Positions 170 to 55,753 of a stretch of 64,000 nt of DNA are shown here, piece by piece. Source of the stretch: Desulfobacterales bacterium (GTDB lineage Bacteria > Desulfobacterota > Desulfobacteria > Desulfobacterales > UBA2245); the NCBI GenBank assembly GCA_040771865.1, contig JAXGZF010000007.1:62001-126000 (forward strand), written 5' to 3'. The stretch's first letter is position 1. The number at the start of each line of letters is the position of its first letter. The translations under genes and the position numbers were made by a program. A model generated the notes under the pieces. The model was not told where the DNA came from. It searched no databases and saw nothing but the letters and a program-made list of their open reading frames with translations.

Positions 170-1261
170 ATGTTTGAGAACATTTATCAAAAAAAGAAAG
201 TTCTTATTACAGGGCACACAGGATTCAAAGGATCCTGGCTAGCCCTGTGGCTTTCACAAATGGGTGCAACGATTACCGGGTATTCCCTGCAACCGCCAAC
301 CAACCCCAACCATTTTCAACTACTCGACCTCAAGATCAACTCCGTAACTGGCGATCTTCGCGATGCGGATAGGCTCAAAAAGGTCTTCAGGGAACAACAG
401 CCGGAGATTGTATTTCATCTGGCCGCACAAGCTATTGTGAGACTTTCCTATAAAGACCCGATGGCAACCTTGACCAGCAACATCATGGGAACTGTCAATG
501 TGCTTGAAGCGTCCCGATCCTGCAGAACGGTGCGCGCCATTGTCAATGTAACGAGCGATAAATGTTATGAAAACCATGAATGGCCCTGGGGGTACCGGGA
601 AATCGATCCCTTGGGCGGATACGACCCATACAGCGCCTCGAAAGGTTGTGCAGAACTGGTTACAAGTTGCTGGCGCAACTCATTTTTTAATCCAAAAGAT
701 TATGGCAACACCCACCGGACGCTTATGGTCAGCGCCCGCGCCGGCAATGTCATCGGCGGAGGCGACTGGGCGTCCGACCGTCTGATTCCGGACGTCATAC
801 GCGCCGTCCATCGGAATCAAAAGGTCAAGATTCGCGATCCGCAGGCTACCCGCCCTTGGCAGCACGTCCTTGAACCCTTAAGCGGGTATTTACTCCTCGG
901 CCAAAAACTTCTGGAAGGACGAAAAGAATTTTCCGAAGCCTGGAACTTCGGGCCTTCCGATGAAGAATACTTTTCGGTCAGCGAGATTGTCGATCAGATG
1001 AAAAAGGTTTGGCCAAAAATTGATTACGAAATAAATCAAACACCCGATCAGCCTCATGAAGCAGGCCTGCTCAGACTCGACTGCTCCAAAGCCCGGACAA
1101 AATTAAAATGGATGCCGGTCTGGACAGGCAGCAACGCCGTTGAGAAGACCGCTCAATGGTATAGAGCTTATTATGAATCCAACAGCATCCAAAGTATTAA
1201 AAATCTCAAGTGTTATATTGCCGATGCGCAAAGCAAACATATCGCGTGGGCTGAAACATGA
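170..1261 (+). CDS. rfbG: CDP-glucose 4,6-dehydratase
   Basis: TGHTGFKGSWL Rossmann motif, TSDKCY, DPYSASK (YxxxK), RAGNVIGGGDW, RPWQHVLEPL. Confidence 0.95.
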   Translation: MFENIYQKKKVLITGHTGFKGSWLALWLSQMGATITGYSLQPPTNPNHFQLLDLKINSVTGDLRDADRLKKVFREQQPEIVFHLAAQAIVRLSYKDPMATLTSNIMGTVNVLEASRSCRTVRAIVNVTSDKCYENHEWPWGYREIDPLGGYDPYSASKGCAELVTSCWRNSFFNPKDYGNTHRTLMVSARAGNVIGGGDWASDRLIPDVIRAVHRNQKVKIRDPQATRPWQHVLEPLSGYLLLGQKLLEGRKEFSEAWNFGPSDEEYFSVSEIVDQMKKVWPKIDYEINQTPDQPHEAGLLRLDCSKARTKLKWMPVWTGSNAVEKTAQWYRAYYESNSIQSIKNLKCYIADAQSKHIAWAET

Positions 1262-1809
1262 AATTCACGGAAATCCAACTCAAGGGCGCCTTTGTCATCA
1301 CGCCTGATCTCCTTGAAGACGAGCGGGGTTTCTTTGCCCGCACGTTTTGCCGCCGTGAATTTGAAAAACAGGGGCTGAATCCCAATCTGGTTCAATGCAA
1401 CATCTCCTTTAACAAAGCAAAAGGAACTCTGCGCGGGATGCACTATCAAATCCATCCGTATGCCGAAGTCAAACTGGTCCGCTGCTCGGCGGGTGTAGTT
1501 TACGATGTCATAATCGACCTGCGCTTGGGATCGCCGACATTTATGCAGTGGTCGGCATTGGAGTTGTCGGCAGAAAACCACAAATTGCTTTACATTCCTG
1601 AAGGTTTCGCCCACGGGTTCCAGACACTCGCAGATAACACCGAACTGATCTATCAGCACTCCACATTTCACAGCCCAGGACACGAAAAAGGCATACGATT
1701 CGATGATCCGGCTCTGAACATTGCATGGCCGTTGCCCGTCAGCATGATTTCTCCAAAGGATCAACACTATTCTCTAATTAACTGTGCCTTCAAGGGAATG
1801 AATACATGA
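1258..1809 (+). CDS. rfbC: NDP-4-keto-6-deoxyhexose 3,5-epimerase (RmlC/RfbC cupin family)
   Basis: DERGFFAR, GTLRGMHYQ, IPEGFAHGFQTL motifs; ATGA overlap with rfbG. Confidence 0.9.
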   Translation: MKFTEIQLKGAFVITPDLLEDERGFFARTFCRREFEKQGLNPNLVQCNISFNKAKGTLRGMHYQIHPYAEVKLVRCSAGVVYDVIIDLRLGSPTFMQWSALELSAENHKLLYIPEGFAHGFQTLADNTELIYQHSTFHSPGHEKGIRFDDPALNIAWPLPVSMISPKDQHYSLINCAFKGMNT

Positions 1810-3032
1810 ACTGCCGTTTCTGCGGGGGAAAATTGACCCACCAGTTTCTTGACTTGGGAACTGCGCCGCCTTCAAATGCCTATCTCAGCCATGAGGACCT
1901 GCGCAAGCCGGAGTTGCATTTCCCCCTGAGATTGCTTGTATGCCATCGCTGCTGGCTGGTGCAGACGGAAGATTACGCGCGGGCCGAAGCACTCTTTCAT
2001 CCTGAGTATGCTTACTTTTCATCGACATCCACGAGCTGGCTTGATCATGCTGCCCAATACAGCGCCATGATCTGCAACCGACTTCAGCTCGGAAGGAAAA
2101 GCTTTGTCATTGAAATCGCCTCGAATGACGGTTACCTGCTGAAAAACTTTGTCGCACGAAATATTCCCTGTCTGGGTATCGAACCGACGGACAGCACGGC
2201 CGACGCAGCGGAAAAAATCGGTATTAAAGTTTTGCGTAAATTTTTTAGTTCAGCGCTTGCGCGACAACTCAGCAACGAGGGAAAACAGGCCGACCTGATC
2301 ATCGGTAACAACGTCTATGCCCACGTCCCGGATATCAAAGACTTCACGGCCGGCCTGAAAACAGCGCTCAAGCCGGGAGGAACGATTACCCTTGAATTTC
2401 CCCATCTCCTGTGCCTGATTGAACACACTCAATTTGATACCATCTACCATGAGCACTATTCCTATCTTTCACTGTACACAGTCAACCACATCTTTGAGGC
2501 CGCAGGATTGAGGATTTTTAACGCCGAAGAACTGCCCACCCACGGCGGCAGTCTGCGCATCTATGGATGTCATGCCGAGGATAACCGCCGTCATGGAAGC
2601 GCTGTTACAAAGATTCTTGCCGAAGAAAAACATGGTGGGCTGCAAAATCTCGCGATCTACGATGCATTTCAGCAACGAGCCGACAAGGTAAAAAACAATC
2701 TGCTTGCCTTTCTGATTAAAAAGAAGCGACATGGCAAAAAAGTTGCCGCTTACGGGGCCGCCGCCAAAGGAAACACCCTGCTCAACTACGCGGGCATAAA
2801 ACCGGATCTGATTTCCTATGTATGCGATGCTTCGCCCTCCAAACAGGGAAAATTCATGCCCGGCAGCCGCATTCCCATTCATCCGCCGGAAATGATCCGG
2901 AAGAAGCGACCTGAACTTGTGCTGATTCTGCCATGGAACATCTCAAACGAGATCATGGAGCAGCTTCATTATATCCGTGAATGGGGAGGCTGTTTTGTTG
3001 CAGCTGTGCCCGAATTGGAGATTTTCAAATGA
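1806..3032 (+). CDS. NDP-hexose C-methyltransferase (class I SAM, zinc-finger N-terminus)
   Basis: CRFC...CHRC zinc site, EIASNDG SAM motif, QFDTIYHEH, ELPTHGGSLR, YGAAAKGNTLL typical of sugar C-3 methyltransferases. Confidence 0.88.
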   Translation: MNCRFCGGKLTHQFLDLGTAPPSNAYLSHEDLRKPELHFPLRLLVCHRCWLVQTEDYARAEALFHPEYAYFSSTSTSWLDHAAQYSAMICNRLQLGRKSFVIEIASNDGYLLKNFVARNIPCLGIEPTDSTADAAEKIGIKVLRKFFSSALARQLSNEGKQADLIIGNNVYAHVPDIKDFTAGLKTALKPGGTITLEFPHLLCLIEHTQFDTIYHEHYSYLSLYTVNHIFEAAGLRIFNAEELPTHGGSLRIYGCHAEDNRRHGSAVTKILAEEKHGGLQNLAIYDAFQQRADKVKNNLLAFLIKKKRHGKKVAAYGAAAKGNTLLNYAGIKPDLISYVCDASPSKQGKFMPGSRIPIHPPEMIRKKRPELVLILPWNISNEIMEQLHYIREWGGCFVAAVPELEIFK

Positions 3033-3135
3033 CGACGCGCAAAATCTTTAGTCCAAAATCGCCTTCATCATGAATCAACGAAATTATATGATCATTTATT
3101 CCTTTTTAACTGTTAGGCCCTAAAGGAGTCTTTGT

Positions 3136-4050
3136 ATGAGCCTCTTTCCAACTCATCTGCAAATCGAAGTTGTAGCCGGTCTTTGTTCTGCTGACTGCAT
3201 CATGTGCAACATCAAAGCGATTCAAGATAAAGGCATACTGGACATGAAGTCTTATCGTGCGATTTTGGACAAGTTTGCCAGTCATACGAACAGGCTGAAA
3301 TTTCTCACTCTGCACTGCCGGGGTGAACCGTTGCTTGACAATTCATTGCCCCAAAAAGTTGGAATTGCCAGAGATCTTGGATTTCCAAGCATTGGTTTCG
3401 CCACCAACGCCACTCATCTGAATAAGGCAATGGCTAAAGCGCTTCTTCAGAACGGTCTGAATACGATCATTGTTTCCATTGACGGCATCAGAAAAGAAAC
3501 ACACGAAAAGATCCGGCGTGGCGTTAACTATGATCAGGTCTTGGGCAACGTACTCGATTTCATCAAGTTGCGAAATGAAAATTACAACGCAAAGGTAATC
3601 ATGCGCATGATTCGCCAGAAAGAGAATCAGAACGAGTGGAATGAATACAGGGAATTCTGGCAAAGCCGTCTGAATCCCGAATACGGCGATCAGGTCAGCG
3701 TCTTCGATATCCATAATTGGGGTGGGAGGGAAGATTCAAATGCGGTTGAACGGGCAACGAGGTTTAAAAGGCTTCAAAAGCTTTCACAAAAAACAAAAAT
3801 GATCTGCCATGATCTTGAAGAAAGAATGGTTGTTTATTGGAATGGAGACATCGGCTTATGCAGTGGAGAGGAACATGCCTCTCACAATTTGGGCAATATA
3901 TTTCGAGACAAACCCGAAACGATATTCAATGGACCTGTCTATACCGAATATAGACGACTTATGAGGGATGGGCGACTTGCCGAAATTGACTATTGCAAAA
4001 ATTGCCAGGTCATACTTTCAAGAATGGAAAGGCAGTATCTTGGCGTATAG
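3136..4050 (+). CDS. Radical SAM protein with C-terminal SPASM/Twitch domain
   Basis: CSADCIMC (CxxxCxxC), GEPLL, ATNA, VSIDG; C-terminal C...NGDIGLC...LGNI...CKNC; AAGGAG RBS. Confidence 0.88.
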   Translation: MSLFPTHLQIEVVAGLCSADCIMCNIKAIQDKGILDMKSYRAILDKFASHTNRLKFLTLHCRGEPLLDNSLPQKVGIARDLGFPSIGFATNATHLNKAMAKALLQNGLNTIIVSIDGIRKETHEKIRRGVNYDQVLGNVLDFIKLRNENYNAKVIMRMIRQKENQNEWNEYREFWQSRLNPEYGDQVSVFDIHNWGGREDSNAVERATRFKRLQKLSQKTKMICHDLEERMVVYWNGDIGLCSGEEHASHNLGNIFRDKPETIFNGPVYTEYRRLMRDGRLAEIDYCKNCQVILSRMERQYLGV

Positions 4051-4120
4051 ACCATGCAGCAATAAAATCAATGGCAACCTGAACATATCCTGAGATCGAA
4101 GAAACCAAAACCGGCATAAA

Positions 4121-5251
4121 ATGACAGATAACAGCAACCGCATCCACTATGCTAAACCGTCCATCACCGAACTGGAAGTGCGTTACGCCACAGATGCCGC
4201 TGCCAACGGATGGGGGAATCGATGTTACGAATATATCTTTCAATTTGAAGATGCCTTCCGGGAGCATTTGGGTGTCAAGCACGCCATTGCCACATCCAGT
4301 TGTACCGGCGCCCTTCATATGGGCCTTACTGCTTTGGGCGTTGGACCGGGCGACGAAGTCATCATGGCCGACACGAATTGGATCGCGACAGCCGCTCCGA
4401 TCACTTATTTGGGCGCCAAACCTGTTTTTGTGGATATTCTGCCCGATACATGGTGCATCGATCCGAAGTTGGCGGAAGAAGCCGTCACAAGCCGCACGAA
4501 AGCCATCATCGCGGTCCATCTTTATGGAAATCTTTGCGAGATGAATGAACTTCTGGCAATTGGCGAGCGGCATGGCGTTCCAGTCATTGAAGACGCGGCC
4601 GAGGCCATCGGATCAGTTTATTTCGGTAAACGCGCCGGGAGTATGGGCCGTTTCGGAACCTTTTCCTTCCATGGGACCAAGACCGTCACGACCGGAGAAG
4701 GAGGCATGTTTGTCACACAGGACGACACACTTTATGAACGGGTCCTGACCTTGAGCAACCATGGACGAAATCGAAATCAAACCAGACAATTCTGGCCGGA
4801 TATCATCGGATTTAAATACAAAATGTCGAATATTCAGGCAGCGATCGGTTGCGCTCAAATGGATCGAATCGAAGAAATGATTGCACGAAAACGAGAAATA
4901 TTTGAAACCTATTCGCATGAATTAATGAAACAGCCCTGTATATCCATGAATCCCCAAAAACCAGGAACCACGAACGGATACTGGATGCCCACAGCGGTTT
5001 TAACTCCGGAAACGGGAGTGACGCGTGAAAAACTACAAGCTGCGTTTTCATCGGAAGACATAGACGCTCGAGTATTCTTCTGGCCTCTGAGTTCACTGCC
5101 TCCTTTTGAACCGAGGTTTTCAAACAAAATGGCCTACGATCTGCCGGGGCGAAGCATCAACCTGCCGAGCTATCACGATTTGACGAAGGATCAAATAACG
5201 AAGGTCTGCAGCGTATTGATGTCGACTCTTTTCAAAGAGGAGCGCGAATGA
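4121..5251 (+). CDS. DegT/DnrJ/EryC1/StrS PLP-dependent sugar aminotransferase
   Basis: SSCTGALH, IEDAAEA, FSFHGTKTVTTGEGG (PLP lysine), GFKYKM, INLPSY. Confidence 0.93.
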   Translation: MTDNSNRIHYAKPSITELEVRYATDAAANGWGNRCYEYIFQFEDAFREHLGVKHAIATSSCTGALHMGLTALGVGPGDEVIMADTNWIATAAPITYLGAKPVFVDILPDTWCIDPKLAEEAVTSRTKAIIAVHLYGNLCEMNELLAIGERHGVPVIEDAAEAIGSVYFGKRAGSMGRFGTFSFHGTKTVTTGEGGMFVTQDDTLYERVLTLSNHGRNRNQTRQFWPDIIGFKYKMSNIQAAIGCAQMDRIEEMIARKREIFETYSHELMKQPCISMNPQKPGTTNGYWMPTAVLTPETGVTREKLQAAFSSEDIDARVFFWPLSSLPPFEPRFSNKMAYDLPGRSINLPSYHDLTKDQITKVCSVLMSTLFKEERE

Positions 5252-5979
5252 AAAAACGCGTCGTCATTTCACAGTCCATGTATTTTCCCTGGGTGGGGCT
5301 TTTCGAGCAGATCCGTTTGGCGGATACCTTTGTTCACTACGACGATGTGCAGCTGTCACGCGGATTTTATAACCGGGTACAGGTAAAGACAGATCATGGC
5401 AGCCGCTGGATTACTGTGCCGCTTCGCGACCATCATCAAGGCCGCCGTATCGATGAAACAATAATTGACAATCGAGTGAATTGGAGACAGCGCCACCGCG
5501 ACGTGCTCGATCAGGCCTATCGCGAGGCGCCATTCCGCGACGATATGCTGACCATCATCGATAAGGTGTTCTCTCTTCCTTCGCATACTCTTTCAGACAT
5601 CGCACGCGCATCGATTCTGGAATTGGCGGATTATTTTTCATTGACAACGGCTTGCGCCTTTATTGATTCCAAAGCGCTGGACATTGAGGGCAAGGGCAGC
5701 CAGCGAATACTCGACATCGTCCAGTTTCTTGATGGAAAAATCTATATTACCGGCCACGGAGCCCGTAATTACCTTGATCATGAGCTATTCGAAAAACGAG
5801 GCGTTTCCGTTCAATATATGAAGTATGAGTTCATGCCCTACCCGCAATTGCATGGTGCATTCACTCCATATGTAACGGCTTTAGATCTCGTGGCAAACTG
5901 CGGAAGAGAAGGTGGAAGGGTCATCCTGTCCGGAACAGTGGGATGGCGAGAGTTCATGCAAAAACCTGTTTTCGATTGA
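5248..5979 (+). CDS. WbqC family protein
   Basis: ISQSMYFPWVG, YDDVQ, YNR, WITVP, YITGHGARNYL, YPQL match the WbqC pattern. Confidence 0.85.
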   Translation: MKKRVVISQSMYFPWVGLFEQIRLADTFVHYDDVQLSRGFYNRVQVKTDHGSRWITVPLRDHHQGRRIDETIIDNRVNWRQRHRDVLDQAYREAPFRDDMLTIIDKVFSLPSHTLSDIARASILELADYFSLTTACAFIDSKALDIEGKGSQRILDIVQFLDGKIYITGHGARNYLDHELFEKRGVSVQYMKYEFMPYPQLHGAFTPYVTALDLVANCGREGGRVILSGTVGWREFMQKPVFD

Positions 5980-6026
5980 AGATCGGCCCATACTCTAAAC
6001 CGTTTATCCGATCCAGGGAGCTGATC

Positions 6027-6851
6027 ATGAAGCAAATGACCCCTTACGAAAGATTTAAAAATGAATGCCGCTTAGAGATCGAAGCGATGGGAAGCGACAG
6101 GTCGCTGTATCAGAAGTCGCAGGATTGGCGCAATGCCGCGCGTCAATACAAATATTCCTACCATTTTGAATGGCTGGGCAGACCTATTATTCAATATCCG
6201 CAGGACATTATCGCCATGCAGGAACTGGTTTGGACGGTTAAACCTGATTTGATTATCGAAACCGGCATTGCCCACGGAGGTTCGCTTGTCATGTTCGCTT
6301 CCTTGCTCGCCCTGCTGGATATCAGCGAGTCGATGGAATCCGGCACGAGTTTCGATCCCAGACGATCCTGTCGCAAAGCACTGGGCATTGATATAGAGAT
6401 CCGGCCGCATAACCGTGCAGCCATTGAAGCGCACCCGTTATTTCCGCGAATCATGATGATTGAAGGATCCAGTATCGATTCCAAGATCATTTCACAGGTA
6501 TATTCTATTGCTGAGCAATACAAGCGGGTCATGGTTTCACTGGACAGTAACCACTCTCACGATCATGTGATAGCAGAACTGGAAGCCTATGCGCCGCTGG
6601 TGTCTCCAGGCAGTTACTGTATTGTTTTTGACACCATCATCGAGGATATGCCGGAAAATCTGTTTCAGGATCGGCCTTGGGGTAAAGGCAACAACCCCAA
6701 AACCGCAGCTCGGGAATACCTAAAAAGGCTCAAAAGCGAAGGCCGCAAGGATATCCAAGGAAATCCCATGTCGTACGAGATTGACAAGGACATCGAACAC
6801 AAGCTGATGATCACTGTTGCGCCTGATGGGTACCTGCGAAGGGCGTCATGA
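6027..6851 (+). CDS. Cephalosporin hydroxylase (CmcI)-family protein, SAM-methyltransferase fold
   Basis: YSYHFEWLGRPIIQYPQD, IETGIAHGGS, LDSNHSHDHV, PWGKGNNPKTA. Start moved to ATG 6027 (AGGGAG RBS). Confidence 0.87.
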   Translation: MKQMTPYERFKNECRLEIEAMGSDRSLYQKSQDWRNAARQYKYSYHFEWLGRPIIQYPQDIIAMQELVWTVKPDLIIETGIAHGGSLVMFASLLALLDISESMESGTSFDPRRSCRKALGIDIEIRPHNRAAIEAHPLFPRIMMIEGSSIDSKIISQVYSIAEQYKRVMVSLDSNHSHDHVIAELEAYAPLVSPGSYCIVFDTIIEDMPENLFQDRPWGKGNNPKTAAREYLKRLKSEGRKDIQGNPMSYEIDKDIEHKLMITVAPDGYLRRAS

Positions 6852-6882
6852 TAATCACTCGAACAACGATGAAGAGAACAAT

Positions 6883-9800
6883 ATGCGATTTTCCGTGTGT
6901 GTTATAGAACCGGAAGGTTACAAATACACCCATTTTCTCTACGATATCTGCAAATACATATGCTACGGCATCGAGTCGGCGGGATATGATTGCTGCATAC
7001 TGAGAAACAAACTGACCGCCGATCGGACGAATATCATCGTAGGCGCCCATAACCAGCGCGACCCCGCTCTTGTTGAAGCGGCTATGCAGGCAGGCAAGTA
7101 CATACTGTTCCAATCGGAGATTATCACGGACAATTTGATTAACAATCAACCTGCTCAAAAATCTTTTGCCGACGTCTATCTGCCCCTCATGCAACAGGCT
7201 CAGGCGGTCTGGACAACCGTTGAATCCAATATCGACGCCTTAAAAAAATGGAATGTGGAAGCGGATCCGATATTTTGGGGCTACCATCCCTTGATGGAAG
7301 AAATTCATCACAAAAGCAATAAGGACATTGACTTTCTTTTTTGCGGATCAATCACTCCTCATCGGAAGAAGTTGCTTGAACAGCTCATCGCGAGGGGAGG
7401 CAGGGTTGTCGTCATGTTCGACGATGCCGCCATGTTCCGCAACGACCTGATTGCCCGAACGCGAGTAAACCTCGCGCCGAATCAGGGACCGGGCATGAAC
7501 CATTTCGGCGGTGTCCGAGTGATGTACCTCATCGGCAACAGATCGATTGTTGTAGTCGAGCGATGCCACGACCAGGCCATGTTCGAGCATTGCTTTCCAT
7601 GGGCCGAGACGGAACGCTGGGTGGATCTGTGCATGGAAACGCTCCGGCGTCCGGATTTAAATCAGATTACCGAAGAATACTACGAAAAAGCAAAAAGCAT
7701 CCGCATGGTCGATTTTCTGACACCCCTTCTGGACAAGTTTCTCTCCGGATGCGCATCGCATGCGCCCGCCGGCAAAGCCGCCCATGCCGGCCCGCTGAGC
7801 GCTCAACAGAACGCGGCGTTGAATGAAAACCACCCGTCGCCGCACTTCAAGGAAAAACCCGTTCCCGGCCTGGTCTCCATCGTCATTTTCACGCATAACC
7901 GCCTGGATCAGACGAAAAAATGCGTCAAGAGCATTTTCAGGCATACGCCGGAAACGCATGAGATTGTTTTTGTGGACAACGGTTCGACCGACGGAACCGT
8001 CAAATGGCTTCAAGGGCAGATCCGGAAAAACAAAAACTGCTTTCTGATCGAGAACAGTACAAATGTCGGGCAGGTCAAAGGACGCAACCAGGGCATGGAG
8101 GCGTCCCGGGGCGAGTTCATCGTGCTTTTGAATAATGACGTCGCGGTGGCCCAGGGCTGGCTTTCCGCCATGCTGGACTGCTTGAACCGCGCACCGGACG
8201 CCGGCATCGTGGGGCCGACGGCCAATCATGCCGGAGGCATTCAGAAGGTGACGGACCCGTCTTACCGGTCCGTCGAATATCTCGATTCATACGCGTCAAG
8301 GTTTCAAGAGCAATTCCGTCATCGTCGGATTCTGCTAAGAAAGATCGACGGATTCTGCATGCTTTTCAGGCGGGCACTGGTCGAGCGGATCGGCATGCCG
8401 GACGAACAATTCGAATCAGGCGGTTTCGAGGATGATGATTATTGTCTCAGATCCGCCCTGGCAGGGTTTCGCACCTATATTGCCGGAGATGTCTTTATCC
8501 ACCGGTTTGAAAGCGAAATCTCCGCCCGGTCCGCTTCAGCTGGAAAAAATATCTTCGAACAAAAATGGACGCTAAGCACTCGCAGCGCCGAGGGCAAGCG
8601 TCTGTCCGCGCTGAAAGCGACGGAACTGGCCGATGCGCTTTGTCAGCATGGAAAACCGGATAAGGCGATCGAAGTCCTCATCGACTGCATTAAAATCGCG
8701 CCGGATGCGGCCGAAATTTACGAAAGCCTGACCCGGATCTTTATCGAATCCAAACGGTTTTCGGAGGCTCGGGAGGTGATCGCGTCCATGCCGGAGGAGG
8801 CGAAGGACGGCCTCAGGGGCCTCGAACTGGCCGGTTACGCAAAAGAAGGCCTGGGACTCGACGATGAGGCAGCCGAATATGCGGACCGCATGCTGGCCAT
8901 GGATGATGCGTCCGCGCCGGCGCTCAACCTGCGGGGCATCCTGGCGTATAAACAAGGCGACCGGAAAGCGGCGGAAAGCTGGTTTCGAAAGGCGACGGAC
9001 GCCGATCCCGGCTACGGCGAGGCATGGACCAATCTCGGCGTTCTCGAGTGGAGCGGAGAACGCCGAGATGCGGCGGTTTCGAATCTGAGACGGGGATTTG
9101 CCCTGGCGCCGGCCGTTCCGGATCACGGTTCGCTTTATTATGCCGCCATAACGGCTCTGAACCGTTTCGACGAGGCGGAAAACGAGCTGCGCCATGCGAG
9201 AAGCATCTGTTCGGGCAACAAGGATATCGCGTTTCTACTCATCGAGGCCCTGATTCGGCAAAACAAGTTGGACGCCGCCATGCCGGAAATTGAGGACGCC
9301 ATCACCGCTTTCGGTCTGGACGAGGGCATGCTCGAAGCGGCGCTGTCGGTTCGGGAACGCCTGGGACCCCGCCGGATCGACAATCGCCAGGGAAAAAAAG
9401 GAACGCTGTCCCTGTGCATGATCGTCAAAAATGAAGAAAAGAATCTGGCCAGATGCCTTCGAAGCGTACGCGGGGTCGTCGATGAGATGATTGTCGTCGA
9501 TACGGGTTCCAGCGACAAAACCATGGATATCGCGCGGATATTCGGCGCCTTGGTTTTCGAGTTCCCCTGGACCGGCGATTTTTCCGAAGCCCGCAATCAA
9601 TCCCTTGCCCACGCCGAGGGAGATTGGATTCTGGTCCTGGATGCCGATGAGGTCATTGCCGCCCGCGATTATGACGAGCTGAAAACCCTGGCCCGGAAAA
9701 AGCCGTCGTCGCCTGTCGCCTATTCCATTATTACCAGAAATTACACAAGCAACGTCAGCGTCATCGGCTGGACGCGGAACAACGGAGAATTTCCCGAAGA

Positions 9801-10641
9801 AGCGGGTGCCGGGTGGGTCAAAAGCTTCAAGGTTCGCCTGTTTCCGCGAAGAAAAGATGTCTTCTTCGCCAATGCGGTTCACGAGATCGTGGAGGATTCC
9901 CTGAACAAGGCCAGGATTCCCATTCGCCGCAGCAATATTCTTGTTCATCACTACGGCAAACTGGATATGGAGCGCGAGGCCCAAAAAGGCCTAGATTATT
10001 ATACCCTGGGGAAAATGAAGTATGAAAGCGATCCGACAAACGTAAAATATATCAACGAACTGGCAAAGCAGGCCCATCTGCTTCACAAATACGAGGAAGC
10101 CGCTGAATTGTGGCTGAAACTCCTCTCGCTGATAGGAACTGATCCCCGTTCGCCGGGCTACAGGGAAATCGCCCAGATATCATACGGCGAACCGTTGCCG
10201 GAAATCTATATTCAGCTCGCCTCGGCGTATCTGATGATGGATCGCTATGATGCGGCGCTTGAAGCGGCAACCAGGGCCATGTCGTCCAGAACGAAGCTCA
10301 AGGAATGCGTCCATATCTACGCGCACTGCGAAATCATCGTCGGCGCCCCGGACAAGGCGTTGCGCGCGCTGGAAGAGCTGCTTGCAGACATGCCGGACTA
10401 CCTTCCGGCATTGTTTTTGACGACCGTCATTTTCTGCCTGAAAGGAAAAACGGAAGAAATGCGGGAGCGTCTGCAGCTGCTGCTGCAAAAAAGGCTTCAA
10501 ATCACGCCGCTCTTAAACGATATCGCTTCCCAACTTCATTCGCACGGAAAGAGAAACGAAGCCTTGCTCATCCTTAATGCAACGGTTGAAAACAAATTGA
10601 GCGACGAGGAAACCGGCAGACTGATCGAGTCAATCGCATGA
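6883..10641 (+). CDS. Multidomain glycosyltransferase: GT-B-like domain + GT2 + TPR + GT2 + TPR; probable flagellin glycosyltransferase
   Basis: DIDFLFCGSITPHR (GT-B-like); VSIVIFTHN..VDNGSTDGT..LLNND (GT2); TPRs; LSLCMIVKNEE..VDTGSSD..LDADE..HYG (second GT2). Start placed at ATG 6883. Confidence 0.85.
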   Translation: MRFSVCVIEPEGYKYTHFLYDICKYICYGIESAGYDCCILRNKLTADRTNIIVGAHNQRDPALVEAAMQAGKYILFQSEIITDNLINNQPAQKSFADVYLPLMQQAQAVWTTVESNIDALKKWNVEADPIFWGYHPLMEEIHHKSNKDIDFLFCGSITPHRKKLLEQLIARGGRVVVMFDDAAMFRNDLIARTRVNLAPNQGPGMNHFGGVRVMYLIGNRSIVVVERCHDQAMFEHCFPWAETERWVDLCMETLRRPDLNQITEEYYEKAKSIRMVDFLTPLLDKFLSGCASHAPAGKAAHAGPLSAQQNAALNENHPSPHFKEKPVPGLVSIVIFTHNRLDQTKKCVKSIFRHTPETHEIVFVDNGSTDGTVKWLQGQIRKNKNCFLIENSTNVGQVKGRNQGMEASRGEFIVLLNNDVAVAQGWLSAMLDCLNRAPDAGIVGPTANHAGGIQKVTDPSYRSVEYLDSYASRFQEQFRHRRILLRKIDGFCMLFRRALVERIGMPDEQFESGGFEDDDYCLRSALAGFRTYIAGDVFIHRFESEISARSASAGKNIFEQKWTLSTRSAEGKRLSALKATELADALCQHGKPDKAIEVLIDCIKIAPDAAEIYESLTRIFIESKRFSEAREVIASMPEEAKDGLRGLELAGYAKEGLGLDDEAAEYADRMLAMDDASAPALNLRGILAYKQGDRKAAESWFRKATDADPGYGEAWTNLGVLEWSGERRDAAVSNLRRGFALAPAVPDHGSLYYAAITALNRFDEAENELRHARSICSGNKDIAFLLIEALIRQNKLDAAMPEIEDAITAFGLDEGMLEAALSVRERLGPRRIDNRQGKKGTLSLCMIVKNEEKNLARCLRSVRGVVDEMIVVDTGSSDKTMDIARIFGALVFEFPWTGDFSEARNQSLAHAEGDWILVLDADEVIAARDYDELKTLARKKPSSPVAYSIITRNYTSNVSVIGWTRNNGEFPEEAGAGWVKSFKVRLFPRRKDVFFANAVHEIVEDSLNKARIPIRRSNILVHHYGKLDMEREAQKGLDYYTLGKMKYESDPTNVKYINELAKQAHLLHKYEEAAELWLKLLSLIGTDPRSPGYREIAQISYGEPLPEIYIQLASAYLMMDRYDAALEAATRAMSSRTKLKECVHIYAHCEIIVGAPDKALRALEELLADMPDYLPALFLTTVIFCLKGKTEEMRERLQLLLQKRLQITPLLNDIASQLHSHGKRNEALLILNATVENKLSDEETGRLIESIA

Positions 10642-10653
10642 CTCAAGCGCCCA

Positions 10654-10985
10654 TTAAGGATGTTGTGCCGGAATTACGCGAAGGCCTGCGGCCAGGTTCA
10701 GGTTGATGTCGATCAGAATCCTGAGCTTTTCCGGCGCCGGATGCGCCATGATCTGAATGATTCGGTTGTCGATGAAAATGCTCAGCGTCAAAAGATTCCT
10801 GCAAACCTCTCAAGGGGCAGCGGGTTGTTGTCTCTGGCCAGTTCGGACTGCAAAACGCTCCAGACCGGCTGGCTGTTTCTCAGGGTCTCGGCCAGAACGG
10901 CATCTCGATCAGGAGCATCCCAGTTTTCCGGCAGTCGGAGAGGATCAGCGCGCTGCGGCTTCGATTTCCCTTCCGGATATTCTGG
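10654..10985 (-). pseudogene. flaF: Degenerate second copy of flaF
   Basis: Aligns at DNA level with 11293-11625 (ISGREIEAAA, WSVLQSELARDNNPLPLE, INLNLAAGLR). It carries about a 13-bp deletion near 10953, a 1-bp deletion near 10924 and a 2-bp insertion near 10808. Confidence 0.85.
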
Positions 10986-11039
10986 ATTTCTGATCACGGT
11001 AATTTTTCGGGCAGCGCCGCGGATCGCGCGTTCTTGCAC

Positions 11040-11210
11040 AGTGCCTGCCGCAGCTTGGGCAATACCTCTGGTTCAGACGATGCCTATGGCCTGTTCTACA
11101 AAAAAGGTAATTGTCTGGTTGATTTTTTGCCGGTTGAAGGGCGGTCCTGTTCGTGGTCAAAAGACGGACCTCTTTTTTCCGGAAGTTCATGATATGTCGT
11201 TGAGAGTCAT
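11040..11210 (-). pseudogene. Eroded remnant of a flagellin 5' end
   Basis: Reads MTLNDIS*TSG (flagellin MAINDISLTSG), then fragments QDRPSTGKK (QGRLATGKK), VEQAIGIV and RGIAQAA (IEQAKGIAQSA). The upstream leader resembles the flagellin leader. Confidence 0.72.
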
Positions 11211-11292
11211 TTTTTTGCCCTTTCTGGGATGCTTTTCCGGCAATTCTTGCCCCGTTTCACTGATGACATAAGTAATCATCCGGTTGCGGCAT

Positions 11293-11673
11293 TTACTCCG
11301 CCGGGCTGCCGCGAAGCCCCGCGGCCAGATTCAGGTTGATGTCGATCAGAACCTTGAGCTTTTCAGGAGCGGGCTGCGCCATGATCTGAATGATTCGGCT
11401 GTCGATGAAAACGCTCAGCGTCAAAAGATTCCTGCGAACCTCAAGGGGCAGCGGGTTGTCGTCCCTGGCCAGTTCGGACTGCAGAATGCTCCAGACCATC
11501 TGGTTGGTTCTCAGGGCGTCGGCCAGTTTTTCCTTATGCCCGACAAAGTCCCAGGTTTTCCGGCAGTCCTGCAGCATCAGCGCGCAGCGTGTTAAAGCGG
11601 CGGCTTCGATTTCTCTTCCGGACATGTTGGTATTCTGAGCTGTTCTGTAAGCTTCAAGTTGCGCTGCGTACAT
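11293..11673 (-). CDS. flaF: Flagellar biosynthesis regulator FlaF
   Basis: AY...SGREIEAAAL, ALRTNQMVWS, DNPLPLEVRRNLLTLSVFI, LIDINLNLAAGL. Start ATG 11673 after GGGAG; overlaps the flbT end. Confidence 0.92.
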   Translation of the reverse strand: MYAAQLEAYRTAQNTNMSGREIEAAALTRCALMLQDCRKTWDFVGHKEKLADALRTNQMVWSILQSELARDDNPLPLEVRRNLLTLSVFIDSRIIQIMAQPAPEKLKVLIDINLNLAAGLRGSPAE

Positions 11674-12052
11674 GGTTGATAATCTCCCGTTCATATTCAA
11701 TCAGTTTTTTCGTCAGTTTCAGTGCCTGATAATACCGGTCATTGAGAATGTATTCGCCGATCTCGTGCAGTATCGGCCTGGTGCTGGGCGCCGCTTCGAC
11801 CACATCCCCGACCAGTTTCCAGAATGTTTTGTGATGGTCCGGCAGATTTTTATTGTCGACGTACATCAGCTGAATGGCGAAATAAATCTTCCTGCAAGGG
11901 GTGTCGGCCGCCTCCAGGCTCAGGATGTCCTTTTCCCGCAGGATCGGCACGTCATTTTCGACGATAAAAACACTTTTTGCATCGCCGTTGGTAATGACCG
12001 CCCCGCCAAGAATGAATTTTTCATAAGGCTTCAGCGTGATCTTGAGCGACAT
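11654..12052 (-). CDS. flbT: Flagellin translational regulator FlbT
   Basis: MSLKITLKPYEKFILGGAVITNGD, ILREKDI, ADTPCRKIYFAIQLMY, YYQALK..KKLIEYE. Confidence 0.93.
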   Translation of the reverse strand: MSLKITLKPYEKFILGGAVITNGDAKSVFIVENDVPILREKDILSLEAADTPCRKIYFAIQLMYVDNKNLPDHHKTFWKLVGDVVEAAPSTRPILHEIGEYILNDRYYQALKLTKKLIEYEREIINHVRSAT

Positions 12053-12079
12053 ACACCCTCGCCTGTGATTTCTTTAAAA

Positions 12080-12505
12080 TCAGACTTTCAAATCCAGAAC
12101 ACTGCCCGGATGAGCCGTCGGGTCCGCATCCGGCGCATGGTTTTGAATCGACTCGTCTTTTTTGTGCGCGGCAGCCTGCTGCCGTTCGGCAACCGCTTCC
12201 CTGCCGGCCGCATTGTCCATTTTCTGCGTTTCCGTGAAGTCGGACGATTCGTTGTCCGGCTTTGCCTGGATCATGACGGAAAAAATCTCCTGCGTATTTC
12301 CCAGCGGGAAAAAGGGAGGAAAGCTGGTTTCAAGCCAACTGGCCTGTTTTTTAGGCGAAGCGTCGGGCAAGGGCGTTGCCTGAGCCGAATTCATTCCGGA
12401 TACGGAGGAATCGCTTTCTGCGCATGCAGCTCCTTTTCCGGCGCCAGATCTTGTCTCAGCAGTCCGGAACAAGCCCTGATTCATTTGAAAATTGTGAATA
12501 TTCAT
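12080..12505 (-). CDS. Hypothetical 141-aa low-complexity protein between flagellin and flbT
   Basis: Fills the gap on the operon strand, with GGGGG upstream of ATG. Contains FPPFFPLG and ends PGSVLDLKV. Confidence 0.65.
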   Translation of the reverse strand: MNIHNFQMNQGLFRTAETRSGAGKGAACAESDSSVSGMNSAQATPLPDASPKKQASWLETSFPPFFPLGNTQEIFSVMIQAKPDNESSDFTETQKMDNAAGREAVAERQQAAAHKKDESIQNHAPDADPTAHPGSVLDLKV

Positions 12506-12529
12506 AATGCGCCCCCGTTACTGGCGGCC

Positions 12530-12556
12530 AAGGCGGGGGAGTTCTTCCCCCGCCTT
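12530..12556 (-). promoter_or_regulatory. 11-bp stem hairpin with AGAAC loop, downstream of flagellin and upstream of the orphan ORF
   Basis: AAGGCGGGGGA-AGAAC-TCCCCCGCCTT perfect inverted repeat. No U-tract follows on the coding strand. Confidence 0.6.
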
Positions 12557-12576
12557 ATCTGTTTCCTGACTTCTTG

Positions 12577-13899
12577 TTACGAGAACAGTTGCAGTACCGA
12601 CTGAGCCGCCTGGGCCGAGAGGCTCAGGGCGGTGGTGGCCAGAGACTGACGGGTCTGCAGCATCAGCATGTTGGCGCCTTCCTCGTTGGTATCGGCCAGG
12701 GTCAGCTTGTCCGAACCCTCGGTCAGCGTGTTGATCATATTCGTCGAAAATTCCTGACGGACGGTGATGATGCTCAGGTTGCCGGACAAACCGGATGCAT
12801 TCTGGCTCAAGGTGTCCAGGGCCGTATCCAGCAGATCCAGATCCGCATCGATGTCGCCGCCTGCCGTCCATGTCGCTTCAGTAATGCCCAGACCGCCCGC
12901 CGAGGCGTCAAATCCCTTCACATCCATCGTGCTGCCTTCAAACTTGACAGTCATGGTGACGTCGGTCAGAAGATTTTTGCCCTTGTACCCGGAGTCACCC
13001 GCCAGCGCGGTGATCTGGGTCCGCATTTCATTGTACTGGGTCTGAAGCGCGGTCATTTCCGCGGATGGAACCGCTTTAAACGTTACGTTGACTACATTTG
13101 CATCAGTTACCGTTGCCGTATTGACCCAGGTGGTGTCCGCCAGAAGGTCCGCCTGCAAAGCGGCGGCGGCGGCGGTTTTGGATGCAGCGGCGGTATCGCC
13201 CGCTCCGGTTCCCGTATACGTGGTTTCGTTGGAATTGGTGATGGTCCAGGTTTCCGAGTGCTGGGTGTCGATGGCTTCGGCATAGCCGGTGGCGCTTCCG
13301 GACAAATCGGCCAATGCGACATCAGCATTGGACTTGGAAATGATCACATCGCCGCTAACCACCGCGGCCGAGTATCCGAGGCCGGTCAGGGTGGTATTCG
13401 CATTGATGTCTGCGGCCAGATCGGCGACGGTGCCGTCCCATTCACCAGTGGTTTTGGTAAACGTTTCTCCGGCGATGACCACATCTTCATCATCAGCAAC
13501 CACTCCAAATGTGATGGACGCGGTCGAATAGGCCGTCACTTGCACAGTCGCCGCTCCATTCGTAATCGTATCGGGCGTTGTGGGGCCTTCGGCGCTCAGG
13601 GCGGACTGCGCGATACCTTTGGCCTGTTCGATCATGGTGGTGATGGCCGTGATGCCCTTGTCGGCGGCGGTGATCGTCTGGATGGCCTGGCCCATGGCAT
13701 CTTTCAAACTGTCAATTTTGGACGCGCGTGAGGTCAGGTTCTGAGACGCGAAGTACGATACCGGATTGTCGATGGCCGTGTTGACCTTCTTGCCCGTGGC
13801 AAGTCTGCCCTGCGTGCGGTTCAAAAGGCTAACCGTGTTTTGAAGGCTCAAAAGGTTGGACCGCATTCCGGAGGTTAAGGAAATGTCGTTGATTGCCAT
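12577..13899 (-). CDS. fliC: Flagellin (alphaproteobacterial-like termini)
   Basis: RSNLLSLQNT..TQGRLATGKKVNTAIDNP N-terminus; RQEFSTNMINTLTEGSDKLTLADTNEEGANMLMLQTRQSL..AQSVLQLF C-terminus; Thr/Ala-rich centre; AAGGAG RBS. Confidence 0.93.
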   Translation of the reverse strand: MAINDISLTSGMRSNLLSLQNTVSLLNRTQGRLATGKKVNTAIDNPVSYFASQNLTSRASKIDSLKDAMGQAIQTITAADKGITAITTMIEQAKGIAQSALSAEGPTTPDTITNGAATVQVTAYSTASITFGVVADDEDVVIAGETFTKTTGEWDGTVADLAADINANTTLTGLGYSAAVVSGDVIISKSNADVALADLSGSATGYAEAIDTQHSETWTITNSNETTYTGTGAGDTAAASKTAAAAALQADLLADTTWVNTATVTDANVVNVTFKAVPSAEMTALQTQYNEMRTQITALAGDSGYKGKNLLTDVTMTVKFEGSTMDVKGFDASAGGLGITEATWTAGGDIDADLDLLDTALDTLSQNASGLSGNLSIITVRQEFSTNMINTLTEGSDKLTLADTNEEGANMLMLQTRQSLATTALSLSAQAAQSVLQLFS

Positions 13900-13928
13900 A
13901 ATGTTTTCTCCTTTTCTAGGTTGTGTTT

Positions 13929-13945
13929 CCGACAGTTCTTGTCGG
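13929..13945 (-). promoter_or_regulatory. Flagellin 5' UTR hairpin with AGAAC loop
   Basis: CCGACA-AGAAC-TGTCGG on the coding strand. Confidence 0.55.
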
Positions 13946-14040
13946 GGTTTTGGTTCTGCCTGTTAAGTTTCCTGTTTTTGTCCGGCCGGACTTTTTTCTT
14001 TTTTGCGTTTTGACGCGATTGTCATCCGCATTTGAACCTG

Positions 14041-14068
14041 TTATCGGAAATTCCGGCGCAAAACTTTA
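14041..14068 (-). promoter_or_regulatory. sigma28 (FliA) promoter for flagellin
   Basis: TAAAG-N15-TCCGATAA on the minus strand, about 140 nt upstream of the ATG. Confidence 0.8.
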
Positions 14069-14125
14069 GCGCTCCGGAAAAATTATTCGCAAAATATTCA
14101 AATCAAGCGGATTGCTGCTTTATAA

Positions 14126-14153
14126 TAAAGTTTCTTCCATCAACTGCCGATAA
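14126..14153 (+). promoter_or_regulatory. sigma28 (FliA) promoter for the TPR gene
   Basis: TAAAG-N15-GCCGATAA, matching the consensus, 35 nt upstream of ATG 14189. Confidence 0.85.
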
Positions 14154-14188
14154 CTACATCAGACAGATGCTTCATACGGGAGACATAC

Positions 14189-15388
14189 ATGGACCTGAGC
14201 GTATCCACAGACGCAATAAACACCTTATTTACTTCAACATCCGCCAACTCCCAGGAAAAACTGGACTCTCTGGCCGGAACCATTCTGGGGCAGGGAATCG
14301 ATTATTTTCAGGACGGAAAATACGAGCTGGCCGTCCAGGCCTTCAAAAGGTCGGCCGCGCTTTCGCCGTTCTCCGACAATAGCGCCAAGGCCTACGATTA
14401 TATCGGCAAGGCTTTTCTCAAGCTGGACAAAACCGAAGAGGCGATCAAAACCTACAAGGAGGCCATTCGGATTTATCCGACGGACGACTCGTTCCATCTG
14501 GCTCTGGGCGACATCTACCTGCAGGAAGATATGCCGGAGGAAGCTGCCGAGGCATACGAAACAGCGGTCAGAATGAATCCGAACGACGCCGAGAGCCAGT
14601 ATTCTCTGGGACAGTGCTACCTCAAAACCGGCGAACTGGATAAAGCCAACGAACGTTTTGCCCAGGTTGTGCGGATCAGCCCCGCCAATGCCTCGGGATA
14701 CTACGGTCTCGGCCAGGCGGCCCGGGCGTCCGGCGATCTGAACGGGGCGGTCTCTTTGTTAAACAAGGCCGTCCGCGTCAACAAGGATTTTGAACTCGCC
14801 TATCTCGAACTGGGGTATGCTTGGGCCGATATGGGAGATTTCAACAGGGCCGAAGACCAGCTGGCGGTTCTGAAGCACAACGATTCCGGTTACCAAACGG
14901 ATCTCGAGAATTATATTACTCAGATCACACAGCCGAGAATGACCGCGGCTTTAAGTTTTGACGGATTCAACACCACGCTGGGTCCGAATACCCCGGTATC
15001 TCGGCTGAGCTCCAGCCTGACCGATGCGAACGCGTCCAAACTCTTTTCGATGACCGTCACGTTTTCCAAGGATATGGACCCGGCCTCCGTCGTCAGCGCC
15101 AAAAACTGGACGATATCCCGGGCCACGATTCAAAACAACGGCGGCGTGTATAATTACGGACTGCCGCCGTCGTCTGCGGAAGCCTCTATTTCCAATAACC
15201 CCGCCTATGTTTTATTCGATGATGAAACCAACATGGCGACCGTTTATTTCCGTATTTCCCAGAACGAAGACGCCGACGCCACGATGGATCCCAATCATAT
15301 CGTCTTTAAATTCTCCGGCGTTGACGCCTACGGAAAGGCCATGGACCCGTCCGCCGACGAATACAGCGGCTTTTCCAGAATCGCATGA
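14189..15388 (+). CDS. TPR protein with Ser/Thr-rich N-terminus and a beta-rich, possibly Ig-like C-terminal domain
   Basis: About six TPRs (residues ~30-230); MTVTFSKDMDPASV resembles bacterial Ig-like (Big_5) domains; GGGAG RBS; no Sec signal peptide. Confidence 0.85.
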   Translation: MDLSVSTDAINTLFTSTSANSQEKLDSLAGTILGQGIDYFQDGKYELAVQAFKRSAALSPFSDNSAKAYDYIGKAFLKLDKTEEAIKTYKEAIRIYPTDDSFHLALGDIYLQEDMPEEAAEAYETAVRMNPNDAESQYSLGQCYLKTGELDKANERFAQVVRISPANASGYYGLGQAARASGDLNGAVSLLNKAVRVNKDFELAYLELGYAWADMGDFNRAEDQLAVLKHNDSGYQTDLENYITQITQPRMTAALSFDGFNTTLGPNTPVSRLSSSLTDANASKLFSMTVTFSKDMDPASVVSAKNWTISRATIQNNGGVYNYGLPPSSAEASISNNPAYVLFDDETNMATVYFRISQNEDADATMDPNHIVFKFSGVDAYGKAMDPSADEYSGFSRIA

Positions 15389-54497: not shown

Positions 54498-55753
54498 CTT
54501 GCATCACCTCGGTCTTTCCCGAATGTCTGAGTTGCATTTTCCTTCAACGCGTCGAACAGCGGCAGAAAAACGCTGAAAACCGCCCCTCCATGCACGCTGT
54601 TTTCAACGTGGATGACGCCTTGATGCAAATCGATAATATTGTGAGCGATCGCCAGGCCCAGGCCGGACCCTTTCTCCTTGGTGCTGAAAAAGGGATCAAA
54701 GATTCGGGTGAGATTTTCCTTCGGAATCCCGCATCCGGTGTCGGAAAAACGTATCTCCACGGCCGGTGAACCGCTGTCGAAATATCCCTCCCGTCGATGG
54801 GTTTCAATCTGAAGATGTCCGCCGTCGGGCATGGCCTGAAAAGCGTTGAGAATCAGATTGAGAAACACCTGCTTCAGCATTTCTGCGTCCGCGTTCACAT
54901 GCGGACTGAGGATGTCGGCATAGGAAACGCTCAGTTCCATCAAATCGACATCCACGACCTGCCGTGAGAACGCCAGTATTTCTTCGAGTACGGCGTGAAT
55001 GTCGACCCTTCGCGGCATGGGATTCAAATTGCGGGTGAACATCAGCAGGTTGGAAATCCTGTTGTCTACATTTTTGACCGAAGTGATGATCCGGGCGGCG
55101 TGCTGTTTTTCCTTTTCATTTCCGGAAGTTTTCAGAATCAGGGAAGCAAAAAGTTCGATGCTGCCCAGAGGGTTTCGAATCTCATGGGCGATATTCGCGG
55201 CCATTTCCCCCATGGCCGCCATCTTCTCGGATCTCTTGGCCATGTTTTCAAGTTTTTCCATTCGGGTAATATCCCTGAACACATACACCGTTCCGATCAC
55301 CCTGCCGTTTCGGTCCTTGACCGGTGATCCTGACACTTCCAGAATATTTTCTCCGGACAGCAGCTTGCGCCCGACCGCGCTTTTGAAAAACTCAAGACGA
55401 AAAACCGGCTCCCATTGATCTTTCGGCGTATCGGCAAACAAAGCGCTCAAATGACAATTCGCAAGCGATTCATGCCGGATTCGGAAGAATTCTTCCGCAC
55501 ATGGGTTTACGGTCCTGATGCGACCGTCAAGATCCGTGACCACCACGCCGGAAGTCAGACTTTCCAGGATGTTCTCCAGATAGTTTTTCATATCTTCCTT
55601 GTCCGCAATGGTCTTCTCGAGTTCGTGGTTTTTGGCCTCCAGCTCCTGGTTGAGACATTCGAACTTATTCTCCAGGCTGCTGTAAGCCTCCTGAAGTCTG
55701 AGGGTCGCCTGGTTGAATTCTTCAAAAGACTTTTGCAGAAAATCAAGATCCAT
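54494..55753 (-). CDS. Soluble PAS histidine kinase (FleS/FlrB/FlgS-like)
   Basis: Coiled coil, PAS, AHEIRNPL, NLILNA, DTGCGI, GSGLGL. Confidence 0.9.
   Translation of the reverse strand: MDLDFLQKSFEEFNQATLRLQEAYSSLENKFECLNQELEAKNHELEKTIADKEDMKNYLENILESLTSGVVVTDLDGRIRTVNPCAEEFFRIRHESLANCHLSALFADTPKDQWEPVFRLEFFKSAVGRKLLSGENILEVSGSPVKDRNGRVIGTVYVFRDITRMEKLENMAKRSEKMAAMGEMAANIAHEIRNPLGSIELFASLILKTSGNEKEKQHAARIITSVKNVDNRISNLLMFTRNLNPMPRRVDIHAVLEEILAFSRQVVDVDLMELSVSYADILSPHVNADAEMLKQVFLNLILNAFQAMPDGGHLQIETHRREGYFDSGSPAVEIRFSDTGCGIPKENLTRIFDPFFSTKEKGSGLGLAIAHNIIDLHQGVIHVENSVHGGAVFSVFLPLFDALKENATQTFGKDRGDAR

Follow-up and report, generated by a model that had tools for sequence, protein, structure and literature searches.

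In a 64,000-nt stretch of a Desulfobacterales genome (contig JAXGZF010000007.1, positions 62,001 to 126,000; hereafter the window), we found that the 5′ untranslated region (UTR) of the flagellin gene carries an element of about 58 nt in which the loop sequence AGAA occurs twice, once at the top of a hairpin and once at the Shine-Dalgarno (SD) sequence, and that a strong hairpin directly after the flagellin gene presents the same loop. The element (13897-13954) ends at the flagellin AUG, and FlbT and FlaF are encoded in the same operon. We give an even chance to the reading that a single sequence-specific RNA-binding regulator, most likely FlbT, recognises these AGAA-loop hairpins on the flagellin transcript. 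That FlbT acts on flagellin leaders has been known for about 25 years, and a leader showing AGAA twice, once at the SD, would give this action a concrete RNA.

The flagellin leader element

FlbT was aligned with 32 relatives (alignment A1), and 80 flbT loci, numbered with an L below, were taken from species-representative genomes of Desulfobacterota (in the broad sense), Nitrospirota, Gemmatimonadota and a few alphaproteobacteria. The closest related locus belongs to a Desulfobacteraceae metagenome-assembled genome (MAG), with an FlbT identity of 89%. Flagellin starts (n = 66, including that of the window) were located by tblastn with the flagellin N-terminus. RNAalifold returned no structure from the raw MAFFT alignment of the leaders (A2), because loop lengths differ between leaders, and a covariance model, R1, was built instead from 22 leaders of uniform geometry with the structure supplied by hand.

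Of the 66 flagellin leaders beside flbT, 59 have an AGAA-loop hairpin of at least 4 bp, placed 30-39 nt upstream of the AUG in 53 cases; in the remaining 6 the strongest such hairpin is located at the SD. When R1 was run over 862,595 nt on both strands, 62 matches were obtained at E ≤ 1, of which 60 end exactly at flagellin start codons. The model thus covers 60 of the 66 flagellin starts, the missed ones being four alphaproteobacterial and two Gemmatimonadota leaders. Just two matches fall elsewhere: a relic copy in the window, described below, and a weak match at L044 11723-11779 (21.3 bits), which is probably driven by the SD box because its loop is not AGAA. The latter stands before an open reading frame (ORF) resembling an S-adenosylmethionine-dependent methyltransferase. 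Within the window, R1 finds the flagellin leader and the relic, and nothing else above chance.

The leader is composed of a covarying 6-bp stem with an apical AGAA (HP1), an A-rich spacer and a CCUAGAAAAGGAG box, which is nearly invariant among leaders, spans the SD and contains a GGA that belongs to the SD itself. In the alignment used for covariation (A4, 62 sequences), which was fitted to R1 and hence leans towards the model, 96.6% of cells are paired versus 30-43% with a slid partner, double-sided changes occur in 7 of the 9 pairs, and none of 500 shuffles equals the observed score. Compensating stem changes are also visible by eye in the raw leaders, outside A4. For HP1, 5 of the 6 pairs are changed on both sides and 95% of cells are paired, with stems such as CCGACA/UGUCGG, CUGGCC/GGUCAG, CCGGCA/UGCCGG, UUGGCA/UGCCAA and UCGGGG/CCCCGG among the variants. 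The box folds, in the minimum free energy (MFE) structure, as a second hairpin, CCU-AGAAA-AGG (HP2), with the SD AAGGAG (13908-13913) in and after its 3′ arm, and its variants CCUU/AAGG, CCC/GGG (in the relic), UCC/GGA and CUAACC/GGUUGG retain pairing. As judged from these alignments, the flagellin hairpin makes up one half of a leader element that several phyla have kept, its stem varying by compensating changes. The leader is therefore conserved and covarying in its orthologues at flbT/flaF loci, as expected of the operator proposed in the original prediction.

A scan of positions 10000-15000 against Rfam 15 gave no match at E ≤ 10 over 13897-13954, and at the gathering score Rfam gave 0 matches in 12 related loci. 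The element, which is uncatalogued in Rfam 15, would extend the FlbT/FlaF system beyond the alphaproteobacteria to Desulfobacterota, Nitrospirota and Gemmatimonadota. We also considered whether the conserved UAG of CCUAG marks a leader peptide and rejected this, as judged by eye, for want of a start codon and a fixed frame.

Several further observations concern the surroundings of the element. In many related loci a GCCGAT-type box is found about 25-30 nt 5′ of HP1, and HP1 may therefore sit near the 5′ end of the mRNA in those loci. Four Geobacter-like loci (L042 ~4383, L046 ~4396, L054 ~2234 and L064 ~4385) have, about 95 nt 5′ of the flagellin AUG and ahead of a putative sigma-28 box, an extra hairpin of 6-7 bp whose loop is AGAAU. 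Elsewhere in the loci, AGAA hairpins with stems of 6 bp or more are at background level, numbering 59 on the gene strand versus 46 on the opposite one.

The original prediction had pointed to three A-AGAAY-U hairpins on the coding (minus) strand of the window, at 13929-13945, 12530-12556 and 11239-11251, and the sequence confirms all of them, with stems of 6, 11 and 4 bp (the last GGCA-AGAAU-UGCC). Both leader hairpins and the 11-bp hairpin are reproduced by MFE folding, and the region 12497-12582 has a folding z-score of -4.84, with 0 of 200 shuffles folding as well. The distances given between the final base of the loop and the A of the start codon are also correct, being 36 nt for flagellin (13935 to 13899), 36 nt for the next gene (12541 to 12505) and 33 nt for the relic (11243 to 11210). 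This equal spacing, while compatible with one shared factor, is no proof of it, because a hairpin just 5′ of an SD gives about that distance anyway; the 36 nt are built from unequal parts, 6 + 29 nt (stem plus spacer) at flagellin and 11 + 24 nt at 12530-12556. The sequence CATTATG, which had been noted at the intact starts, is indeed present at both of them in the window but is not kept in relatives, and judged by this comparison it is a local coincidence.

The third hairpin, which had been counted as a further case, belongs to a decayed paralogue of the flagellin leader, found both by R1 and by repeat analysis, so that the independent hairpin instances are two rather than three. The relic retains HP1 as GGCA-AGAAU-UGCC (11239-11251) and HP2 as CCC-AGAAA-GGG (11218-11228). 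The A-U to G-C change between the flagellin and relic stems is present as described, at the third stem pair, and together with the change from CCU/AGG to CCC/GGG in HP2 it agrees with the structure. The relic leader and seven flagellin codons are followed, after about 180 nt, by a broken flaF copy, an 83-aa fragment of which has a weak FlaF match in Pfam. We therefore explain this decayed second unit (10667-11262, minus strand) by a tandem duplication followed by the loss of flagellin, the intervening gene and flbT.

It is very improbable that the recurrence in the window reflects only chance and this duplication, with the flagellin hairpin and 12530-12556 having no common meaning. The paralogous origin of the relic, the lack of conservation of CATTATG and the unequal parts behind the equal spacing would all fit such an explanation, as would the bare 7-mer AAGAAYT, which is at chance frequency in the window (20 matches versus 21.1 ± 5.0 expected). 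At the tip of a perfect stem of 4 bp or more, however, AAGAAYT is found 5 times versus 0.46 ± 0.68 expected (200 dinucleotide shuffles, maximum 4), and in relatives the two elements are each conserved in their own right and share this apical motif. Of the five apex hairpins, the three in this 2.7 kb are all on the coding strand, and the remaining two, at 921-933 (+) and 55713-55725 (-), are inside ORFs and have AU-rich 4-bp stems.

The hairpin after flagellin and the gene downstream

The 11-bp hairpin at 12530-12556 is G/C-rich (-23 kcal/mol), begins 21 nt after the flagellin stop and ends 24 nt before the next AUG. The proposal that it is a copy of the flagellin operator does not hold, for R1 gives no match here at E ≤ 10 and a second, SD-overlapping AGAA box is absent. 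An Rfam match to Clostridiales-2 at 12517-12567 (16.6 bits) is at chance level and was discarded. A strong hairpin with G runs and C runs is found directly after the flagellin stop in nearly all of the 61 usable loci, in some cases with U tracts that make it resemble an ordinary terminator. The loop contains AGAA in 21 of these 61 loci, namely the window and its Smithellaceae/Syntrophaceae-like relatives, four Geobacter-like loci, L037 and L021 (Thermodesulfovibrionales). For the alignment of apex and stem we used the 19 sequences with a 5-nt loop and left out 3 with 4-nt loops. The apical GAAGAANUC (G-A-AGAA-N-U-C) is invariant in 19 of 19, double changes occur in 9 of the 12 stem pairs, and 96.9% of cells are paired versus 57-68% with a slid partner. 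An invariant apex beside a covarying stem implies that the loop is under selection. On this comparative evidence, 12530-12556 is an element distinct from the leader that shares its selected apical motif.

We consider it unlikely that the hairpins are purely structural and have no common binder, with HP1 a stabiliser of the 5′ end of an abundant mRNA, 12530-12556 a terminator or a barrier to 3′ exonucleases, and AGAA kept by ancestry or as a favoured A-rich (GAA) loop. The G/C hairpins that follow flagellin irrespective of loop, some with U tracts, are what such a reading expects; it also accommodates the failure of the leader model to match 12530-12556, the ability of the AGAAU apex to close to a GAA triloop, and alphaproteobacterial leaders whose A-rich loops have other sequences. 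Nevertheless, it leaves unexplained the invariant apical 9-mer beside its covarying stem, which also does not fit a terminator acting regardless of loop sequence, and it leaves unexplained that the AGAA of HP1 is kept in at least three phyla despite stem changes, with a second AGAA at the SD. AGAA 3′ loops occur, moreover, in separate lineages (Smithellaceae/Syntrophaceae-like, Geobacter-like and Thermodesulfovibrionales), and a coding-strand U tract is absent at all hairpins of the window. The stem of 12530-12556 is followed by GGCCGCCAGUAAC on the coding strand, and a terminator consensus scan flags this hairpin on the plus strand only. The hairpin thus resembles intrinsic terminators and 3′ stabiliser hairpins as a strong G/C stem-loop placed directly behind a highly expressed gene, and differs from intrinsic terminators in having no coding-strand U tract, a selected loop and a gene that starts 24 nt past the stem.

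The AGAA loop after flagellin goes together with an intervening gene: it is present in 19 of 34 loci where flagellin and flbT are more than 500 nt apart versus 2 of 25 where the gap is under 300 nt (Fisher p = 1.2e-4, uncorrected for shared ancestry). By a hand count in 20 loci, this AGAA lies 31-39 nt before the AUG of the downstream gene, and HP1 lies 30-39 nt before the flagellin AUG. In most loci the post-flagellin stems (for example L018 5452-5522, L020 5927-5997 and L064 5332-5402) are built of GGGGAGG-type and CCUCCCC-type runs and therefore resemble an SD and an anti-SD paired together.

The gene that follows the hairpin in the window (12080-12505) had been taken for an orphan. We found seven close homologues of it and weaker ones directly 5′ of flbT in many loci. 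Across phyla, the position between flagellin and flbT is occupied by genes for proteins of 140-240 aa with a common [FY]PP[FWY][FP]P motif and flanking helices (for example L041 5390-5986, L064 5393-5986, L063 2724-3359 and L031 5505-5981). A profile search returned 99 relatives, mostly nameless or labelled "hypothetical protein", with a few generic or likely spurious labels and no specific functional family among them. An Atlas search of the protein gave hypothetical clusters only, and neither Pfam nor NCBIfam yielded a family. A relationship to the flagellin N-terminal domain was rejected (hhalign probability 0.6%). Collectively, these comparisons indicate that the gene, which we call the PPFP-motif gene, is a member of a conserved uncharacterised family.

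FlbT as the candidate binder

The flagellin leader is probably a docking site, as yet putative, through which flagellin translation is held back. We hypothesize that the HP1 stem would present AGAA about 35 nt upstream of the AUG as a first site and that HP2, whose 3′ arm is the SD, would be the second. With both sites occupied the ribosome-binding site would be closed, and relief would come once export draws off flagellin and its chaperone FlaF, as proposed for Caulobacter. Under this hypothesis, the very stable post-flagellin hairpin would probably have two roles: as a 3′ or intercistronic barrier it would let flagellin mRNA accumulate over that of the downstream genes, and as a third site it would tie the PPFP-motif gene to the same regulator. 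The latter role would make this conserved unnamed gene a likely member of the same regulon.

In published reviews, FlbT acts on the flagellin 5′ UTR, with the RNA determinant and the mechanism unresolved (PMC4347634, PMC3930126, PMC7591256); one of them, from 2015, leaves the RNA determinant blank and calls the mechanism "unresolved" (PMC4347634). A limited literature search, which did not include the primary Caulobacter FlbT papers, found no description of the AGAA motif. The arrangement here is like that of Caulobacter crescentus, where FlbT and FlaF act on fljK mRNA according to the same reviews, in that flbT and flaF adjoin flagellin and the target would be the flagellin 5′ UTR. These sources describe control of translation and mRNA stability that is tied to flagellar assembly. 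Unlike in Caulobacter, the system described here is found in a Desulfobacterota-like phylum, its cis element is defined by covariation and a fixed AGAA, and the window has an extra AGAA hairpin 3′ of flagellin and the PPFP-motif gene.

The loops may also be bound by a factor other than FlbT, such as a CsrA of relaxed specificity, Hfq on purine-rich (ARN-like) tracts, another protein or a small RNA bearing UUCU, and this too we regard as improbable. The parts of the literature consulted document no binding of FlbT to defined RNA motifs, the SD box is all-purine, and the layout is that of CsrA-regulated flagellin leaders. The exceptional loops, AAGGAU in HP1 of L045 and AGGAA in the 3′ hairpin of L031, point the same way, yet L045 is the sole exception among the aligned leaders, GAA standing in place of GGA in 62 of 63; the earlier statement that the loops, AGAA(Y), lack GGA is accordingly upheld. 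We saw no csrA or fliW among the ORFs tested in the 64-kb cluster, and none in a motif scan of the 80 loci covering about 6 kb on either side of each flbT. No candidate small RNA was seen, and the confinement of the element to flagellin genes argues against a global binder such as Hfq.

The reading that we prefer, in which FlbT is the binder, draws on a likeness to CsrA. The CsrA-regulated flagellin leader (hag) has one site in a loop and one overlapping the SD, the same layout as the two putative sites here, and HP1 in many loci resembles the CsrA loop consensus with GGA changed to GAA. A further likeness to the CsrA-FliW control of hag and flaA mRNA in Bacillus and Campylobacter (PMC4894983) is that a small beta-rich protein, here a candidate RNA binder, would work together with a partner that senses flagellin. 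Unlike in that system, the loop is AGAA instead of GGA, and FlbT has an extra four-helix C-terminal domain. The leader element thus suggests a CsrA-like mode of action for FlbT.

In the AlphaFold model of FlbT, five beta strands make up the N-terminal domain and four helices form a bundle at the C-terminus (pLDDT, the predicted local distance difference test score, 74.7; 74.8 for the N-domain alone). The N-domain (residues 3-40) aligns in register over 38 columns with a CsrA profile assembled from the E. coli gene and eight plasmid genes (hhalign probability 26%, E 7e-4; with -M first, probability 52%, E 1.4e-4, score 23.7), and the invariant R39 of FlbT falls on the invariant R44 of CsrA. Reversed alignments score 9.4 and 12.6, and 100 column shuffles score 9.9 ± 2.6 (maximum 21.6), none of them attaining 23.7. 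This comparison is suggestive only of homology between FlbT and CsrA. An extended form of the preferred reading, which we hold to be doubtful though worth stating, is that FlbT is a diverged CsrA-type protein, with a CsrA-like beta domain and a four-helix domain sensing flagellin or FlaF, and that its loop specificity went from GGA to GAA; it would then have the twin-hairpin leader as its operator in three or more phyla, and the third hairpin would put the PPFP-motif protein under the same checkpoint. If this is true, CsrA/FliW and FlbT/FlaF, the two widespread checkpoints of flagellin translation, would be of one origin.

A number of observations weigh against AGAA-loop hairpins as sites for FlbT. 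The hhalign probabilities are below the usual confidence, one of the column shuffles comes as near as 21.6, HMMER with the FlbT profile against the PDB finds no CsrA, and Foldseek, queried with the model of whole FlbT and with that of its N-domain, gives no match at E < 0.1. All compared loci were selected through flbT, and the link between motif and FlbT is thus read within flbT-bearing loci only; A4, as said, leans towards its model. The HP2 helix is tentative, because it has 3 bp and is near-invariant, with double changes in only 2 of its 3 pairs. The R1 non-match and the absent second AGAA box at 12530-12556 count here too, as do the 40 of 61 post-flagellin loops without AGAA, the 15 of 34 loci in which a downstream gene is present and the post-flagellin loop has no AGAA, and the rarity of an AGAA hairpin directly 5′ of flbT, which is sporadic (L020, L046, L054 and L077).

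The alphaproteobacteria, in which FlbT has been studied, add to these points. R1 finds nothing at E < 0.01 in seven alphaproteobacterial loci. Among eight leaders read, four have a two-hairpin layout with other loops, two have AGAA hairpins and two show no evident layout. The leaders of Cereibacter, Methylorubrum and Azospirillum have two hairpins and a sequestered SD, with the loops CGAAA, ACAA/GACAAA and AAA.

AGAA occurs in the alphaproteobacterial leaders only of Bosea (L077_2971) and a Rhizobiales MAG (L080_2653). The first flagellin leader of Bosea (L077 2911-2973) has three AGAA hairpins, GGCC-AGAAC-GGCC, GCC-AGAA-GGC and UACC-AGAA-GGUA, and a GCC-AGAA-GGC hairpin at L077 5975-6003 lies 12 nt before the flbT AUG. 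The best alphaproteobacterial match to R1 (L082 8157-8216) has no gene downstream and was set aside.

Features of the locus

All genes of interest at the flagellin locus are on the minus strand (Table 1).

Table 1. Positions in the window of the flagellin operon, its RNA elements and the decayed second unit
Feature	Position	Strand	Evidence
Flagellin gene, 440 aa	12577-13899	-	Pfam Flagellin_N 1.2e-8, Flagellin_C 2e-3
Flagellin leader element (HP1, A-rich spacer, HP2/SD box, AUG)	13897-13954	-	Covariance model R1, 75 bits, E 5e-18
HP1, CCGACA-AGAAC-UGUCGG, 6 bp	13929-13945	-	Sequence, MFE fold, stem covariation
HP2/SD box, CCU-AGAAA-AGG-AG	13908-13920	-	MFE fold, near-invariance across leaders
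Post-flagellin hairpin, 11 bp, AAGGCGGGGGA-AGAAC-UCCCCCGCCUU	12530-12556	-	Sequence, MFE fold, covariation
141-aa ORF, PPFP-motif family (the former orphan)	12080-12505	-	Between flagellin and flbT; homologue searches
flbT	11654-12052	-	PF07378, 8e-44
flaF, ATG at 11673, overlaps the end of flbT	11293-11673	-	PF07309, 7e-30; start read from sequence
Relic flagellin leader, AUG at 11210	11208-11262	-	R1, 33.6 bits, E 1e-6; MFE fold
Flagellin-start remnant, seven codons (MTLNDIS-stop)	11187-11210	-	Repeat D5, 79% identical to 13866-13899
Broken second flaF copy	10667-10993	-	Repeats D1-D4, 83-89% identical to 11300-11638
Putative sigma-28-like promoter, TAAAGTTT-N11-TCCGATAA	14041-14068	-	By eye, upstream of the flagellin leader

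The putative sigma-28-like promoter at 14041-14068 lies about 140 nt 5′ of the flagellin AUG, and a fliA gene is present in the window. The remainder of the window is a large flagellar cluster that includes flgL, flgK, flgM, flgN, fliA, flhF, flhA and flhB, among others. Adjoining the flagellin operon, a stretch on the plus strand (170-10641) encodes a CDP-glucose 4,6-dehydratase, a LegC/PseC-type aminotransferase, a radical-SAM protein, a methyltransferase and a 1274-aa GT2 plus TPR protein, and these sugar-modification genes may be a flagellin glycosylation island.

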